Source: Escherichia phage ELT1
Strand: one strand, 5' to 3'
Length of the DNA: 64,000 bases
Sequence record: MZ892903.1
Shown: positions 744 through 53,156 of the stretch, one piece after another
Position numbering within the stretch: position 1 is the stretch's first letter
Layout: every line of letters starts with the position of its first letter
The notes under the pieces: model-generated
What the model was told of the DNA's origin: nothing
What the model saw: only the letters and a program-made list of their open reading frames with translations
Database searches by the model: none
Program-made: the position numbers and the translations under genes

Positions 744-2068
744 TTGATTTCCTCTAAATCTTTGGTGTATTCTGTAACTACATCAGTAGTTTTCCAATAT
801 TCGTTTTCTTCTTTTTTGGCTTTAGCTTCTTCAGCAAGTTTCTTTGCTTCGTCGGAAGTCATATGAAAAATGTTCATTCCAACTAGTTTATCAACATAAG
901 AAGAATACATATCAATTTTAGAAAGTTCTTCGGTCAGTTCTTTGCGAGTTTTACCTTGTACAACAATTTCACCTGAAATTACTTTCTTAATGAAATGTGC
1001 CTTGGCAAAAGCTAAACGAAATGCTGATTCAGTTTCTTTGATTTTGTTATCAATTCGTTTTTGGACATAAGTTTTACGAACTTCAACGAAGTCTTTGATT
1101 AAATCAACTACGTTATCGTAAACTTGCAGCTTTCCTTTCTCATTAATAACGGTAATATTTTGGGAACGACGCTCAATCAACCCGAAGTCTTTCATGATTT
1201 TTGCATGGCGTTCTTCTTCATTATCGCTCAAAGAGTATTCTTTGCGGAATTTAATTTTAAAGCCAAAACCATGCTCACCGCAAGCATCATCCCATGTAAT
1301 GAAGCCTTTATCTTCAAGCGGGTCTAAGATTTTACTCACATAAGTTTCACGATCATACTTATATGGAATCTCAGTGATATGCATTTGAGTTCGTGAAGTA
1401 AACTTATATGTTCCACGAATTTCATATTGCCCATCAATTTCAACGACTTCACCACGAAATTCTGGGAATTCTACCTTCGGTTTAGTTACTTTCTTTCCTT
1501 GAAGAGCTTGTAGTACAGCTTTCTTGACAGAAGAAACACTATGAGGAAGAATGTAAGTTGCATAACCAGTTGCAATACCGGAAACACCATTAAGAAGAAC
1601 AGTAGGAATAATAGGCAAATAGAAAGCAGGAGGAATGTGTTCTTTATCTTGATGTACCGGAGCATATTCAGTATCTTTATATACGTTATAGAAATTTTTA
1701 CTTACACGAGCAAAAATATAACGACTTGCTGCTGCCTTTTGGACAGTACGAGAACCAAAGTTTCCTTGACCGTCTAACAGAGGAAAGTTATTATTCCAAG
1801 TATTAGCCATCAAAGCCCCCGCGTCTTGCGCAGAGTTTTCACCATGATGATATCCAAGGTCAGCTACACCACCTGCAATAGAAGCGAGTTTGTGAAACTT
1901 ATCTTTATTTCCTCGCGCCAAATCAAGAGCTCGAGCAATAACAAATCGTTGAACTGGCTTAAATCCATCAATCATATTTGGAATAGCACGATTTTCAACC
2001 GTGTACATAGCATAAGCCAGTGCTTCATTATCAATGATACTTTTTAAATCGCGATTATTCAGTTGCAT
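740..2068 (-). CDS. 52: DNA topoisomerase II medium subunit (GyrA-like), 442 aa
   Basis: 442-aa ORF; sequence and length match recalled T4 gp52. Confidence 0.95.
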   Translation of the reverse strand: MQLNNRDLKSIIDNEALAYAMYTVENRAIPNMIDGFKPVQRFVIARALDLARGNKDKFHKLASIAGGVADLGYHHGENSAQDAGALMANTWNNNFPLLDGQGNFGSRTVQKAAASRYIFARVSKNFYNVYKDTEYAPVHQDKEHIPPAFYLPIIPTVLLNGVSGIATGYATYILPHSVSSVKKAVLQALQGKKVTKPKVEFPEFRGEVVEIDGQYEIRGTYKFTSRTQMHITEIPYKYDRETYVSKILDPLEDKGFITWDDACGEHGFGFKIKFRKEYSLSDNEEERHAKIMKDFGLIERRSQNITVINEKGKLQVYDNVVDLIKDFVEVRKTYVQKRIDNKIKETESAFRLAFAKAHFIKKVISGEIVVQGKTRKELTEELSKIDMYSSYVDKLVGMNIFHMTSDEAKKLAEEAKAKKEENEYWKTTDVVTEYTKDLEEIK

Positions 2069-2072
2069 AAAT

Positions 2073-2213
2073 TTACCATACTAGTGAATGTAGTGCCATA
2101 ATAACATCAGAAATGAAAAGCACGACTTGAATTAATCCGAACATTACTCCATAATATAGTGCTACCAATAAAGCAGCAAGGGCTACCGAGTAGCCCAAGA
2201 TTTTCTTAATCAT
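2073..2213 (-). CDS. small hydrophobic protein, 46 aa
   Basis: ATG overlaps ac stop; product MIKKILGYSVALAALLVALYYGVMFGLIQ... Confidence 0.35.
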   Translation of the reverse strand: MIKKILGYSVALAALLVALYYGVMFGLIQVVLFISDVIMALHSLVW

Positions 2214-2361
2214 TAGATAACAACGCAAATGTTAAATATGCACACATACCCTGGGCTAAAGCTTGTGAAAACACACTGCTAGCATCGATACAGATAGTTA
2301 AAACACATGCTACTATCCAACAAATAAATGAAATAACTCCTAATAATTTTGCGATATTCAT
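2206..2361 (-). CDS. ac: acriflavine-resistance membrane protein, 51 aa
   Basis: product MNIAKLLGVISFICWIVACVLTICIDASSVFSQALAQGMCAYLTFALLSND; position between 52 and stp as in T4. Confidence 0.65.
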   Translation of the reverse strand: MNIAKLLGVISFICWIVACVLTICIDASSVFSQALAQGMCAYLTFALLSND

Positions 2362-8685: not shown

Positions 8686-9212
8686 GCTCATCCATTCTTT
8701 ACGAAGGTCAGCGTTATCTCCCATGAGCATTTCAAAAAGCTCTTTCCAATTCTCAGGAAGTTTAACAACATCATAAACTGGGTTCTGAATCATTTCACGG
8801 TATTCAGATTTTTCCAAAGAGCCAAGTCCCTTAATATAACGGATGCTATGTTTAGGTAGAGCATCTTTGGCACTCTCATATTCAGCGACTGTATAAAACC
8901 ATTCTTGTTTTTTACCGACCTGAGCGATGATTACAGGAGTTTTGACAAAGCGAATTCTTCCTTGTTCAAACAGTTCTGGCCAATTACTAAAAAATCCGAG
9001 CAGAGAAGGATAAATAGAACCTAATCCAATAATCTCTTAATTATGAGGTATTTCAATGGATAGCCCGAAGGCTATCCATCGTGATCTGCGTCTGTCATAA
9101 TAGCGACATTCGCATAGTTCATTGAAGAGGATTTAATAGAACGACGAACATTGTTCTGCAATTTATATTTTTTCATATCAACGCTAGAAGAATCAATTTT
9201 TACAAATTTCAT
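8680..9212 (-). CDS. 60: topoisomerase II subunit gp60 with 50-nt translational bypass; coding = complement(join(8683..9024,9075..9212)), 160 aa
   Basis: codons 1-46 MKFVKIDSS...IMTDADHDG end GGA then TAG; translation resumes after landing GGA with LGSIYPSLLGFFSNWPELFEQGRIRF...WMSQ. Confidence 0.9.
9025..9077 (-). other. gene 60 bypass element: take-off GGA, UAG stop, stem-loop, 50-nt coding gap, landing GGA
   Basis: minus strand GGA TAG CCTTCGGGCTATCC...ATTATT GGA TTA; 50 nt from after take-off GGA through landing GGA. Confidence 0.9.
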
Positions 9213-17362: not shown

Positions 17363-18109
17363 TTATCCTCGGATAAGTTTAAAAATTGAACAATTCAGCG
17401 GATATCCTCTTTTCAGTTTGAGTTTATCAATAAATGATAAGTTTTGAAACCGCTCTACACCTTGAATAATTTTATCACACATATCATATTGCATTTCTGC
17501 TTCTGACAACTTTTTCACAGTTTTCCAATCCGAGCCTTTAAGAAGAACGTTCAATTTAACAACTTCAGCGCCTTCTGCTATGCGAGAACCATCAATACGA
17601 GCTTTAAGTGCTATAATCGTTAGCTTAACGTCAGAAGTTTGTTTTGATTTAGAAAGCTGAGAAATGTGTTCAATTCGGTTTTCACGTTTTTTCTGTATAG
17701 CTTTAATTTGATTATAAGTCTTTTTGATTTTAGCCCATTTCTTTTCATCTAAATTTAGTTTATGAACTTTTTTCGCAGATGAACGACCAATTCGCAAAGC
17801 AAATAAATCACGCTTTTCAATCAACTCTTCTAAAGTATAATCAGAACGAAATGTATTATACTTTTTCTTTACTGCAATAACATTCCCTTTAATGTATCCA
17901 ACGTTATTATCAAAACGTTCTAATGATAATTTCTCTCCTTCAATACGATTATCAAAAGGTTCTCCCGAGTAAGCACAAACTTTTTGATCTAAAATGTTCT
18001 TAATGTAATTGAAGTCTAAGTTAAAATCTTTAGAACGTCTTTTTGCAGATGCCTGAGTATGCTCTAGACGACGTGTAATTTTACGAATTTGATTTTTAGA
18101 CAGTTTCAT
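17363..18109 (-). CDS. srd: Srd-like protein, 248 aa
   Basis: length and position between dda and modA as T4 srd. Confidence 0.55.
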   Translation of the reverse strand: MKLSKNQIRKITRRLEHTQASAKRRSKDFNLDFNYIKNILDQKVCAYSGEPFDNRIEGEKLSLERFDNNVGYIKGNVIAVKKKYNTFRSDYTLEELIEKRDLFALRIGRSSAKKVHKLNLDEKKWAKIKKTYNQIKAIQKKRENRIEHISQLSKSKQTSDVKLTIIALKARIDGSRIAEGAEVVKLNVLLKGSDWKTVKKLSEAEMQYDMCDKIIQGVERFQNLSFIDKLKLKRGYPLNCSIFKLIRG

Positions 18110-21655: not shown

Positions 21656-21901
21656 TTAACCACCAGTTACTTTCCACAAATCTTCGTTTGCAGCAATCCA
21701 TTCAGTACGCTGATTTTCTTCATATACAGTAGTATATGCTGCTTTTTCTGAAGGGAACGTCTGGTAATGAGCACCAGAAATTTTGTGAACGTCAGAATAA
21801 AGAGGGAAAGCTACTGAAATTTCCTTTCCTTCAATTTTCTTATTTCCATCTAATTTCTGCTCAAATGTTTTGATATTAACATAACCGCGAGTACTAGCCA
21901 T
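21656..21901 (-). CDS. soc: small outer capsid protein Soc, 81 aa
   Basis: matches recalled T4 Soc; AAGGAG RBS. Confidence 0.9.
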   Translation of the reverse strand: MASTRGYVNIKTFEQKLDGNKKIEGKEISVAFPLYSDVHKISGAHYQTFPSEKAAYTTVYEENQRTEWIAANEDLWKVTGG

Positions 21902-21931: not shown

Positions 21932-21939
21932 TATTTATA
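21932..21939 (-). promoter_or_regulatory. late promoter TATAAATA upstream of soc
   Basis: exact TATAAATA on minus strand ~30 nt upstream of soc ATG. Confidence 0.5.
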
Positions 21940-22489: not shown

Positions 22490-23140
22490 TTATTTTTCCT
22501 TTCTTATGAAGTTTTCTATCATATGTCTATAGCAGATATTAGGATAACCTGCCTTGACAGCTATTTTATTAAATTTTGTGCGCTTAGGTCTATTATTATA
22601 AACCCATAATTCATAAAGCGCATCATAACTATTCCATATTTCCCCTCGCCTAGGATTTGGTAAACCATATCGAGGCGAATTTTTACCGCTAAATCTTCCT
22701 TTTCGGGCTTTACTCATATTAGCCTTGGCTTCATCGGATATAATTTTACCTTTATGAGCTAGACGCATTTTGGCTTTAGTTTCTTCTGGAGTCTTTTTGC
22801 CTTTAATCCATGACGGCTTGCCATATCTAGGATTATTTTCACCCGAGAAAAGAACAGAGTTTTGGATTTTAAGGGTTTCTATTAATCTACTTGTTAATTT
22901 AACACCTTTATTATATCGCATTAAATTTACAGCATAATGCAATCCTCTCACATCTGGATATATTTTAGTTAATAATCTATGAGCTATAAAATGCTCACGC
23001 GCAGTTAACTCAACAAGATTGTTTTTGTCATCTGCTCCTCCCATACATCTAGGAATTATATGATGGCGTTCTTTATATCCATCAAGATGCCGGCATTTAG
23101 CTTTTGTAATTAAAGCCGAGTAAATTTTTTGGTAATTCAC
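22490..23140 (-). CDS. HNH homing endonuclease, 216 aa, GTG start
   Basis: N-terminus MNYQKIY... and HHIIPRCMGGADDKNNLVELTAREHFIAH; free-standing between 56 and dam. Confidence 0.75.
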   Translation of the reverse strand: MNYQKIYSALITKAKCRHLDGYKERHHIIPRCMGGADDKNNLVELTAREHFIAHRLLTKIYPDVRGLHYAVNLMRYNKGVKLTSRLIETLKIQNSVLFSGENNPRYGKPSWIKGKKTPEETKAKMRLAHKGKIISDEAKANMSKARKGRFSGKNSPRYGLPNPRRGEIWNSYDALYELWVYNNRPKRTKFNKIAVKAGYPNICYRHMIENFIRKEK

Positions 23141-23199: not shown

Positions 23200-23988
<789 letters not shown>

Positions 23989-24089
23989 TCATTTATTGCA
24001 GCAAAAATGAATTATACAGTTCTTCATCATATGTATTTGATAGTAATACTAATACGTTTTGCGATAAATATTAATTTAAAGGAGGACAT

Positions 24090-24290
24090 ATGGTACAAAA
24101 ATTAATGGCACTTGTTAATGCCATCAAAGGTAATAAAAAGCGTATAGCTTTTACTATTTCTGCTACGGTAGGAATTTTACTCTGGAACTTTATTTTATCA
24201 CCTGTTGCTATTGCTCATGGCGTTAGTATTCCAGTAGTTACTCTTGATACATTCGTAGATTTAGCATTTGCTTTAGTTGGGTTAATTTAA
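24090..24290 (+). CDS. small membrane protein, 66 aa, plus strand
   Basis: strong RBS AAGGAGG 6 nt before ATG; hydrophobic product; only convincing plus-strand gene, convergent with gene 61. Confidence 0.5.
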   Translation: MVQKLMALVNAIKGNKKRIAFTISATVGILLWNFILSPVAIAHGVSIPVVTLDTFVDLAFALVGLI

Positions 24291-25315
24291 ATCTTAGCAT
24301 ATTTAGATAACCGCATTTTAGCCATCAACCCCTGTGCAATATTATTTTTCATATATTCCATAATTTGTTCAGGGGTTGCACCTTCCTTTCTAATCATATC
24401 ATTAACATCTTTTGATTTCCAGGGAGATTTATCCCAAAACATAACCCTTTCTCCTGCATCAACTAATTTAGTCATTCGTTTGATAGTGTCAGGATGACGA
24501 GGTTCATTATCTAAAACCCACACTCGTCTATCTTTAAATGGAACAACTTCTAGGTCTAATTGACCACCCGTAATAGCTATACCATTTTCAATAAAAAGTG
24601 AATCTATAGGTCCTTCTAGAACATATACATCACCATCTTTAACCCGTTCGACTCCATAGATTTTTGTTGCCTCAGGATAAGCTTTGATGGTGATATATTT
24701 TTGAGGAGCATCTTTCTTTAATGCACGTCCTTGAAAAGACTCAGCTTTTCCATTAGCATTATAAATTGGAATAACAAGACGAGGCTCAGAAATTTCCTTT
24801 TTATATGTTCCCGGTGCTATGCTATTAACCAATTTAGGCCATTCAGTTGTAAACCAAAGATATTTCCATTTATCCTTTGGAATACAACGAGCTTTTACAT
24901 ATTTTATAATTGGATGGTCTTCCGCCAGTTTATCTAATCTAACACATGACGGAAGAGATTTAATTATTTTCTTCTCAGGTTGTTTAGGAAGTTCTTTAGG
25001 TTTTTCTACTGGACGACTTTTACCTTTTTCTTTTCTTATTTCAAAGATATACTCACGATATAAATCGGGTTCAAACTCCTTTAAATATATTCCGATTGGT
25101 GCATGATAGTTACAGTTATAACAATGAATATTTCCTTCATTATTATCACCATAATACCATCCACGGGCTTTATTTTGGTCGGTTTTTGAATCTCCACACA
25201 CTGGGCATCTAAACCGCAATTTAAAAGTTGAACTATTATTTACTTGTGTGAATTTAGGTAAATGAGCTAATGCACGGTATGCAAACTCATTATCAATCCA
25301 AGGTATTGATGACAT
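24287..25315 (-). CDS. 61: DNA primase, 342 aa
   Basis: zinc-finger CPVCGDSK...CYNC; matches recalled T4 gp61. Confidence 0.95.
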   Translation of the reverse strand: MSSIPWIDNEFAYRALAHLPKFTQVNNSSTFKLRFRCPVCGDSKTDQNKARGWYYGDNNEGNIHCYNCNYHAPIGIYLKEFEPDLYREYIFEIRKEKGKSRPVEKPKELPKQPEKKIIKSLPSCVRLDKLAEDHPIIKYVKARCIPKDKWKYLWFTTEWPKLVNSIAPGTYKKEISEPRLVIPIYNANGKAESFQGRALKKDAPQKYITIKAYPEATKIYGVERVKDGDVYVLEGPIDSLFIENGIAITGGQLDLEVVPFKDRRVWVLDNEPRHPDTIKRMTKLVDAGERVMFWDKSPWKSKDVNDMIRKEGATPEQIMEYMKNNIAQGLMAKMRLSKYAKI

Positions 25316-25483: not shown

Positions 25484-26110
25484 TTAACCTCTATTCATAA
25501 AAGCATTAAAAATTTGGTCATCAATAGAAACATTTACTTTAGACTGTTTTTCGGATGGTAATTCATATCCACATATTACAATTTTGTGATCAATATCAAA
25601 ATACACAGAAGCAATATGATTAATGCTGTTTTCAGTAAAGTCTAAATCAACATCAATATCTTTTTGACCAAAGCCCAAAGGATAAATAATGCGAGTAATT
25701 CGATTATCTTTAACAAAGATTCCACCGACATACTCTGTACTGCGTTTAAAGTCTACACGCCGACGAAATGAAAAATATTCAGGCTCTTTATGAGCTCGGC
25801 TTATAGGGCACAACGAATAACTAGAATAAGAGATGTCAAATCCTACGCCTTCAATATGAACTAAATTGTCATGATTAAACCAATTATAATCATATGCCAA
25901 GTCCATTAGATTGTCATATGTGAAAGGCACCGGATTAACATCATTGGTCACAAGCATATAATTAGCAACTGCTATAATTTCATTATTTTTAACGAATACA
26001 AACCGTGATTGATGCGAATGGCCTGGACCTGCGTTTTCACGATTAATGATATAACACTGGGCACCTTTATATTTGTACGTGTCTTTACACTTGTGCATTT
26101 GATAAAGCAT
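25484..26110 (-). CDS. hypothetical protein, 208 aa
   Basis: ORF track. Confidence 0.5.
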   Translation of the reverse strand: MLYQMHKCKDTYKYKGAQCYIINRENAGPGHSHQSRFVFVKNNEIIAVANYMLVTNDVNPVPFTYDNLMDLAYDYNWFNHDNLVHIEGVGFDISYSSYSLCPISRAHKEPEYFSFRRRVDFKRSTEYVGGIFVKDNRITRIIYPLGFGQKDIDVDLDFTENSINHIASVYFDIDHKIVICGYELPSEKQSKVNVSIDDQIFNAFMNRG

Positions 26111-52111: not shown

Positions 52112-53156
52112 CATTATATTCAGCATGAGTCGCAAATTCATGCCCGTTTATATGAAACAACAAAATTTGGATAGTCCATAGATATGCAACGTTCTTTTAT
52201 AGTGCTAGGATGAAAATTTAGCGCTTTAGCTGCTTCTATATAAGACGTATACTTAATACCGTCAACAACCACATATTCAGGAACTTTATGAATAGTAGTC
52301 TTAATACTCAAAACAAGAGGATGAGTTTCGACTTCACTTTCAGTGCAATTTAAATATTCCGCTGCTTTTTTAAAACTTCTAAAAGTTTTATTTTTAAGCT
52401 TTATCGATACTTGTTTTTTACTTTTTCGACTATTGACATTATTTTGCACATGTTCCTTAGATCTTCCGTTTTTAGCATAATATTCAGCTACAGAAGATTT
52501 TATATTGTTTTTATGAGATTCGGATAACACTTTACCCTTATGAGCATCTCTTAATTTTTGAATATGTTCTTCAGTATCCGGATGCTTATAAAACTTTTTA
52601 CCGCCTATGGATTTATTTAAACATTTTTTGCTATAAAAATATTTACGTATGACCTCTTCTTCATGTTTTAATGCATCTTTATAACTATCAAATGTTTTTA
52701 AAATTATCCATTTAGTAGGTGTATCAGTTTTTAAGCGTTCATTTATATACTTAGATGACGTTGTGTAAGTTTTCCAGTTTGTGGGCTTGTTTTTAATTGT
52801 TCTAAATTTTTTATAACCGATATAAATGTCGCCATTAGAAAACTTAACTAAGTATGTAAATGCGTCTTTATCTTTTATTTTAGTACAACGTCTTTTTATC
52901 CATTTCATTGTTTCACCTCGTATTCATAAGATAATCTTATTTATACAAGATGACTGCTGCATGTCGCCATGCAGATTAGACTATATCTTCATCTTTCGAT
53001 GCCGGCCGTTTCGAATAGCATTAGCTTCTATTCTACACCGCTACATTCATCACGGTTAGTCGTTAGGCATTTAGTTCAAAAGAACATTTAGCACGGGATT
53101 GTCTACTAGAGAGGTTCCCCGTTTAGACCGGTTTTACATGAGCCTGAATTAAATTA
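52112..53156 (-). mobile_element. group I self-splicing intron in nrdD carrying the I-TevII ORF
   Basis: ~1.0-kb non-coding interruption of nrdD with internal GIY-YIG ORF; junction placed by homology (AFQAYE|YEVNTLF vs E. coli AFQALEYEVNTL); last intron base is G. Confidence 0.65.
52138..52908 (-). CDS. intron-encoded GIY-YIG homing endonuclease I-TevII, 256 aa
   Basis: YLVKFSNGDIYIGYKK motif; GAGGTGA RBS; inside nrdD intron. Confidence 0.85.
   Translation of the reverse strand: MKWIKRRCTKIKDKDAFTYLVKFSNGDIYIGYKKFRTIKNKPTNWKTYTTSSKYINERLKTDTPTKWIILKTFDSYKDALKHEEEVIRKYFYSKKCLNKSIGGKKFYKHPDTEEHIQKLRDAHKGKVLSESHKNNIKSSVAEYYAKNGRSKEHVQNNVNSRKSKKQVSIKLKNKTFRSFKKAAEYLNCTESEVETHPLVLSIKTTIHKVPEYVVVDGIKYTSYIEAAKALNFHPSTIKERCISMDYPNFVVSYKRA

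Follow-up and report, generated by a model that had tools for sequence, protein, structure and literature searches.

In a genome region whose genes run almost uniformly on one strand, is a short reading frame on the other strand a gene and, if so, when is it expressed and what does it encode? The question is raised by positions 24090 to 24290 of a 64,000-nucleotide stretch of Escherichia phage ELT1 (the window), where a sequence-only reading had proposed a lone plus-strand gene for a small membrane protein. The window is a Tequatrovirus (T4-type) segment whose gene order is collinear with that of the T4 GenBank record. Minus-strand open reading frames (ORFs) of at least 60 amino acids make up 90% of its length, and every annotated coding sequence between 1 and 50 kb of T4 lies on the minus strand. 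Among the other plus-strand ORFs of the window (at least 40 amino acids and mostly outside minus-strand ORFs), none combines a Shine-Dalgarno sequence with a plausible protein sequence, and the description of the gene as lone holds. The locus comprises the following features.

23200..23979, minus strand: dam, DNA adenine methyltransferase (D12 methyltransferase, E = 1e-50), the variable upstream neighbour
24063..24070, plus strand: GATAAATA, candidate variant late-promoter box, seen in the sequence 19 nt before the ATG
24079..24085, plus strand: Shine-Dalgarno sequence AAGGAGG, 4 nt (ACAT) before the ATG
24090..24290, plus strand: coding sequence with ATG start, 66 amino acids, predicted small membrane protein of PHROG 2024 and orthologue of RB69ORF029w
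24102..24127, minus strand: hairpin of 11 pairs followed by a U-run (T-run in the DNA), inside the 5' end of the plus-strand coding sequence
24287..25315, minus strand: gene 61, DNA primase, the convergent neighbour, whose stop codon overlaps that of the small coding sequence

Conservation of the reading frame

The 66-amino-acid product of the ORF is MVQKLMALVNAIKGNKKRIAFTISATVGILLWNFILSPVAIAHGVSIPVVTLDTFVDLAFALVGLI, and by alignment the ELT1 protein UAW07331.1 is identical to it. The frame is intact and the product, as had been claimed, is hydrophobic, with a GRAVY of +1.25. It occupies a gap of 307 bp that is AT-rich, and scans for Rfam families and tRNAs found none at the locus. Beyond gene 61 the window carries 61.1, adfA (61.2), sp, dmd and 41. 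On the other side, the adjoining gene is not always dam; RB69, VR25 and some Tequatrovirus contigs lack it and have gene 56 in its place. Between gene 56 and dam the window also has a gene for a 216-amino-acid HNH/NUMOD3 homing endonuclease (22490..23140, minus strand; PHROG 655, E = 4e-59). This is the oriA neighbourhood, and JEP6, T2 and T4 have merely a spacer of about 60 bp there.

Sixty-six open codons within an AT-rich gap of this size are not significant alone; comparative data give them their significance. A 1-kb query around the ORF matched 503 phage records at 90–99% identity (best match JEP6, 98.8%), and tblastn matched 692 phage records, with coverage of at least 80% in 687. The ORF is intact in about 500 Tequatrovirus records, and most records label it 'hypothetical protein'. 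T4 itself carries it intact at 17738..17938, with three amino acid differences from the window product. No gene is annotated at this position in the curated records of T4 (NC_000866 and AF158101) or in that of T2 (LC348380), yet both phages have the ORF intact; the resulting 'empty' gap in the T4 annotation is 309 bp long. One of the two protein versions that we looked up was found solely in Logan read assemblies, and we take the T4 version to be missing from the NCBI and UniRef proteins of the collection searched.

The product matches the PHROG 2024 HMM with E = 4.9e-31 (residues 2–66 against positions 1–65 of the 65-position profile). Syntenic homologues of 57–69 amino acids are present in Mosigvirus, Gaprivervirus, Dhakavirus, Kanagawavirus and Jiaodavirus, and those of VR25, Bp7, PEi20 and LAL003 match PHROG 2024 at 1e-15 to 1e-28.

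RB69ORF029w, plus strand: Mosigvirus orthologue, 54% identity, same length
VR25 gp031, plus strand: Gaprivervirus orthologue, 49% identity, with tandem paralogue gp032
Bp7 gp130, plus strand: Dhakavirus orthologue
PEi20, plus strand: Kanagawavirus orthologue, unannotated
LAL003, plus strand: Jiaodavirus orthologue

Synteny is constant among the genera compared, with the gene always on the plus strand and flanked by gene 56 or dam and by the 3' end of gene 61. The tandem paralogues of VR25 (1495..1692 and 1701..1901, plus strand, in the VR25 locus record) define two types, A and B, that are 23% identical; Dhakavirus has a type B copy alone. The core LWN..P.A..G..LP is common to both types. A profile search of 5.8 billion proteins returned 122 members, and among the matches listed lengths range from 41 to 73 amino acids, most being 61–69. 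All named sources are T4-like enterobacterial phages or contaminated bacterial assemblies, and none of the 122 members bears a credible functional name. In the Mosigvirus-like ECCR664 (about 1458..1650) a one-nucleotide deletion in an A-run (AAAAAG to AAAAG) breaks the frame of the small gene. Either the record contains a sequencing error or this copy is a pseudogene.

Within genera, dN/dS is 0.10–0.40 (Nei-Gojobori). Between genera, synonymous differences are saturated (pS 0.61–0.76) and pN is 0.33–0.36. Differences are distributed over the three codon positions as, for example, 31, 13 and 41, with position 2 the most conserved. Judged by these comparisons, the ORF is a real gene that codes for protein and is conserved in the T-even group. 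A homologue search in T4-like genomes, which the sequence-only reading had put forward as a check, thus turned up a gene conserved in at least six Tevenvirinae genera and under purifying selection. In Nolan et al. (2006), RB69ORF029w is classed as an ORF for which T4 has no orthologue; contrary to that status, an intact, unannotated T4 orthologue exists.

The upstream box and the direction of transcription

A late-promoter-like box had been noted about 20 nt upstream of the ORF, and GATAAATA indeed lies at 24063–24070, 19 nt separating its last base from the ATG. It deviates from the T4 late consensus TATAAATA (-13 to -6) at a single base, the G at -13. Transcription from it is predicted to start near 24076; the predicted late-transcript leader is about 14 nt long, with AAGGAGG unpaired. 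The ribosome binding site had been described as the strongest seen, with AAGGAGG at a 6-nt spacing. The motif stands and is found nowhere else in the 64 kb on either strand. The spacing, the single point of the earlier reading that needs correction, is 4 nt; 6 nt is the spacing of T4 itself.

The upstream sequences from 12 contexts in six genera are unalignable apart from NATAAATA and the Shine-Dalgarno site. The heptamer ATAAATA is found 12–22 nt before the ATG in Tequatrovirus, Mosigvirus, Gaprivervirus, Dhakavirus, Kanagawavirus and Jiaodavirus, and (A)AGGAG(G) is found 4–6 nt before it in all lineages compared. The base at -13 is G in T4, T2 and the window, A in RB69 and one dam-less Tequatrovirus contig, and C in VR25, PEi20 and LAL003. 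T is present in Bp7 (Dhakavirus) alone, which has a perfect TATAAATA. A gap of only 2 nt separates the proximal box of Jiaodavirus from the Shine-Dalgarno sequence, so that transcripts starting there would have a truncated site; a second box is present 21 nt further upstream. Natural indel breakpoints end just upstream of the box, both in the T2-type insertion of a 181-amino-acid ORF and in the loss of dam in L008.

The T2-type ORF (181–186 amino acids) is inserted between dam and the small gene at 1794..2339 (minus strand) of the T2 LC348380 locus and at 841..1401 of L011, and ends just upstream of GATAAATA. It belongs to PHROG 8706, of unknown function, and has a weak, sub-threshold Pfam match to the DpnII (GATC) restriction endonuclease (E = 0.0095); no PDB sequence match to it was found. 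The Pfam match raises the possibility that this ORF is what remains of a GATC restriction-modification pair in which dam was the partner.

Late-promoter motifs are avoided elsewhere in the window. TATAAATA occurs twice against 10.5 copies expected, an approximately 5-fold depletion, VATAAATA occurs five times against 29 expected, and the plus strand has three ATAAATA heptamers in total in 64 kb. Both TATAAATA copies are on the minus strand (21932–21939 and 52938–52945), and the former precedes an 81-amino-acid minus-strand ORF at 21656..21901 that is soc by position. Other plus-strand GATAAATA boxes lie inside early genes of the window (9009..9016 and 25681..25688, for example antisense in adfA (61.2)) and of T4 (2787, 19329, 24367 and 25380). 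Such G(-13) boxes are either tolerated because they are weak or are antisense late promoters. Among the seven plus-strand NATAAATA sites between 1 and 50 kb of T4, the first base is G in five, A in one, C in one and T in none. Since G is thus the commonest form there, the G-variant box of the small gene may be weak or inactive. Departures from the consensus are found in the T4 late region as well, where boxes with A at -13 stand 27–35 nt before genes 15 and inh and 29 nt before gene 49. In the compilation of Geiduschek and Kassavetis, 18 of the 50 T4 late promoters listed deviate from the consensus, and variants are used both in vitro and in vivo (PMC2988020). Nolan et al. report little conservation of T(-13) among T4 relatives (PMC1524935), and list no late promoter at the site upstream of the RB69 copy.

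The strand on which the gene lies is informative about its timing. T4 early and middle transcripts are all of the opposite polarity, counterclockwise (PMC2988020), and the small gene faces the other way from every annotated early gene between 1 and 50 kb of T4, as expected of a gene transcribed only late. A gene on the plus strand can therefore hardly be anything but late. A promoter search and inspection revealed no convincing plus-strand MotA or sigma-70 promoter upstream of the ORF. Because the box and the Shine-Dalgarno sequence are kept, the motif is avoided in the window, and early and middle transcription uses the other strand, we consider the small gene very probably a gp55-dependent late gene, as far as its sequence context can tell. 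The earlier suggestion of a late promoter is strengthened by the footprinting of NATAAATA, by the avoidance of the motif elsewhere and by the polarity of the T4 early and middle transcripts.

At its 3' end the gene converges with primase gene 61, as had been observed from the sequence. The stop codons overlap by 2 nt (TAA at 24288–24290, against 24287–24289 on the minus strand), and they do so in four genera, Tequatrovirus, Mosigvirus, Gaprivervirus and Kanagawavirus. This overlap is a matter of genome compaction and not the function of the locus. The window has no plus-strand terminator-like site after the ORF before approximately 28478, so a late RNA must run antisense into gene 61. Such read-through is not conserved, because other elements intervene in two genera. 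In Jiaodavirus LAL003 a GC-rich hairpin (approximately 1306..1323) that is absent from T4 lies between the small gene and the primase gene; in Dhakavirus Bp7 the same interval holds a homing-endonuclease gene (1372..2127, minus strand) and a GC-rich hairpin. From this distribution, antisense control of gene 61 would be at most a lineage-specific by-product.

The hairpin at 24102..24127 has a predicted free energy of -12.4 kcal/mol (z = -3.6) on the minus strand; read on the plus strand it is weak (-6.8 kcal/mol, z = -0.26) owing to G-U pairs. It might be an intrinsic terminator for gene 61 transcripts, to judge from its sequence. If it does terminate them, their 3' UTR is antisense to the whole small gene. 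The minus-strand hairpin is confined to Tequatrovirus, and we rejected it as a conserved feature of the locus.

The predicted product

The protein is predicted to consist of an amphipathic N-terminal segment (residues 1–18) that carries all five lysine and arginine residues, the sole clear transmembrane segment (residues 19–42), a proline-containing loop (residues 43–51), and an amphipathic helix (residues 52–65) with D53 and D57. Lysine and arginine are confined to residues 1–18, and the C-terminus reads ...DLAFALVGLI. On the Hessa scale (apparent free energy of membrane insertion) residues 19–37 sum to approximately 1 kcal/mol, versus 8–10 for the C-terminal segment. An AF2 model from a 37-sequence alignment has helices at residues 2–12, 16–42 and 52–65, with a mean pLDDT of 76. 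For RB69ORF029w, the supplement of Nolan et al. (2006) reports a single TMHMM transmembrane segment at 21–41 and no signal peptide.

The product is thus predicted to be a single-pass inner-membrane protein, with its N-terminus in the cytoplasm because of the positive-inside rule. In the model, the C-terminal helix may either lie at the periplasmic interface or re-enter the membrane. The earlier description of a small membrane protein agrees with the one clear transmembrane segment, the positive N-terminus, the helical model and the TMHMM result for the RB69 copy, and the topology prediction that had been proposed as a check yields a single transmembrane segment with a cytoplasmic N-terminus.

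W32, N33 and P38 are invariant across the family. A40, G44, L/I47, P48 and G64 come close to invariance, and most members have an acidic residue at position 53. N33, A40 and G44 share one face of the helix (i, i+7, i+11), and the type B paralogues have an extra Asp within the transmembrane segment. This pattern of W32-N33, P38, A40 and G44 suggests tight association of transmembrane helices, either of the protein with itself or with a partner, and it is from the pattern that we infer an action by self- or hetero-association in the membrane.

Searches for relatives of known function returned little. Pfam and NCBIfam, including their holin models, gave no match even at E values up to 1, and PADLOC gave none for three family members. 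A PDB profile search returned YejA alone, with E of about 1. BLASTP gave no alignment with the window's Imm protein at E values up to 100, and there was no Pfam match to Imm. Foldseek against BFVD found no informative fold, and returned family members together with weak matches to two other 63-amino-acid phage proteins, one of them from Enterobacter phage CIP9. A phmmer search over 1.84 billion representatives yielded small phage proteins and long repetitive proteins, and nothing else. We rejected the long repetitive matches as homologues; they are summed matches to short motifs in a eukaryote-like repeat (P0032), SH3b-like repeats (P0036) and PQQ-type propeller repeats, 'LLWNF..SSPAVANG' (P0037). 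Literature searches on T4 Ribo-seq, an unannotated T4 ORF, RB69ORF029w and a late promoter between dam and gene 61 turned up no mention of the gene. With no known relative and with the holin features that we tested absent, the family is best described as an uncharacterised small membrane protein of the T-even group, probably made late.

Competing explanations and comparison with known systems

We think it likely that this is a real gene, expressed late and encoding a membrane protein. The contrary view, that the frame is a chance opening in an unexpressed regulatory spacer (the 3' UTR or terminator of gene 61, or the dam promoter), draws on the missing annotation in the curated T4 and T2 records, the terminator-like minus-strand hairpin within the frame, the minus-strand middle promoter that Nolan et al. 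predict immediately upstream of the RB69 copy, and a chance expectation of a few percent for 66 codons in a 300-bp gap. These points are outweighed by the retention of 57–69 codons in at least six genera at 20–55% amino acid identity with synonymous change saturated, by the significant PHROG matches and best-kept second codon position, and by a Shine-Dalgarno sequence and promoter box that are kept in genera where the hairpin is absent, that is, outside Tequatrovirus. Conservation, selection and the PHROG matches effectively refute a chance ORF, which we reject because of dN/dS, the saturated pS against pN, the codon-position pattern and the retention across genera, and to which we give almost no credence. 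It is also unlikely that the RNA is the important product, with the ORF secondary and the late plus-strand transcript regulating gene 61, and possibly 61.1 and adfA, by antisense pairing or transcription interference. Selection has acted at the protein level (dN/dS below 1, kept length, invariant residues), a strong Shine-Dalgarno sequence is kept everywhere, and the Jiaodavirus and Dhakavirus elements that separate the ORF from the primase gene leave read-through unconserved. What speaks for such an RNA is the overlap of the stops without a plus-strand terminator-like site before approximately 28478, the entry into gene 61 that a late transcript would then have to make in antisense in Tequatrovirus, Mosigvirus, Gaprivervirus and Kanagawavirus, and the documented transcription of both T4 strands at different times (PMC2988020).

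Two further alternatives accept the protein and differ as to its time of expression or its role. Expression early or in the middle period, with the product acting like Imm as a membrane protein of superinfection immunity, would suit an early-region location and the fact that Imm is likewise a small inner-membrane protein. It is very improbable, given that T4 early and middle transcripts run the opposite way (PMC2988020), that no sigma-70 or MotA-type promoter is evident upstream on the plus strand, and that neither sequence similarity to Imm nor a Pfam Imm match is found. A strict lysis function as holin, pinholin or antiholin has somewhat more to recommend it and is still improbable. The size, the hydrophobicity and the probable late expression of the protein suit holins, the 63-amino-acid homologue of phage OE5505 is named 'Holin' in UniRef and BFVD, and the Tequatrovirus copies begin M-V-Q-K-L-M, resembling a dual start. 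However, the OE5505 label appears automatic, the second Met is missing outside Tequatrovirus, and no holin model of Pfam or NCBIfam matches at E values up to 1. The charge lies at the N-terminus and the hydrophobic C-terminus ends in GLI, whereas holins typically have a charged cytoplasmic C-terminal tail. No endolysin or spanin gene adjoins, the neighbours in all genera being dam or gene 56 and gene 61. T4 already has the holin T, the antiholins RI and RIII, and spanins, which also counts against this role.

Under our preferred reading, that of a late membrane protein gene, transcription of the small gene would run clockwise, opposite to that of the entire early region around it, and would begin at the one-base-variant late promoter GATAAATA. 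Use of this promoter would depend on gp55, gp33 and gp45 and would give the short leader with its very strong Shine-Dalgarno sequence, and the proposed late promoter would imply that the protein is made only late in infection. The 66-amino-acid product would then enter the inner membrane through its single transmembrane helix, the basic N-terminus remaining cytoplasmic and the proline-containing loop and acidic amphipathic C-terminal helix lying at the periplasmic face. There it may act through tight helix-helix association with itself or with a partner. The likeliest role is an accessory one in modulating what happens at the envelope late in infection, be it the timing or inhibition of lysis, membrane integrity or late exclusion, but this is a guess that we would expect to prove wrong far more often than right. 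We are more doubtful still of a composite in which a late T4-group inner-membrane protein oligomerises through its Trp-Asn/Pro face, as a viroporin-like protein or a holin-antiholin partner, serves in lysis timing, lysis inhibition or late exclusion, and has an mRNA that is antisense to primase.

T4 is the reference genome of a very large phage family, and its 'empty' gap holds a gene common to six genera or more. No other gene in over 50 kb of early region runs clockwise, and this one lies downstream of a late-promoter box that is conserved. Its inclusion in the T4 gene list would correct the 'no T4 orthologue' status of RB69ORF029w, provide a target for proteomic, Ribo-seq and CRISPRi screens to which it is now invisible, and draw attention to a candidate late membrane protein of possible relevance to lysis and the biology of the envelope. 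Otherwise the gene is ordinary, and represents no new kind of system.

The arrangement resembles T4 late units that depend on gp55, gp33 and gp45. The ATAAATA core lies 19–21 nt before the small-gene start, compared with 12–35 nt in T4 late genes, and as in those units there is no -35 element, the direction is clockwise and the box is kept across genera. In contrast to T4 late units, the -13 base is G here and A or C in other genera, with T in Dhakavirus only, and a single small gene stands alone inside more than 50 kb of early genes, its status as a late unit being read from sequence. Class II holins, pinholins, the T4 antiholin RI and Imm are, like the small protein, small, hydrophobic, phage-encoded proteins of the inner membrane, and holins share the late expression that we propose. 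None of them has sequence or HMM similarity to the small protein, which differs also in its N-terminal charge, its location outside a lysis cassette and its one confident transmembrane segment, against two in Imm and pinholins. Oligomers mediated by a transmembrane Asn and viroporin-like single-pass proteins offer an analogy purely of residue pattern, with no homology. The small protein has an invariant Asn in its transmembrane segment with Trp beside it and the small residues A40 and G44 on the Asn face, and the type B paralogues add a transmembrane Asp. The closest counterpart is RB69ORF029w, or PHROG 2024 as a whole, from which the window ORF differs in no way of kind; the two share their position and strand beside gene 61 and a predicted transmembrane segment, which in the RB69 protein spans residues 21–41.
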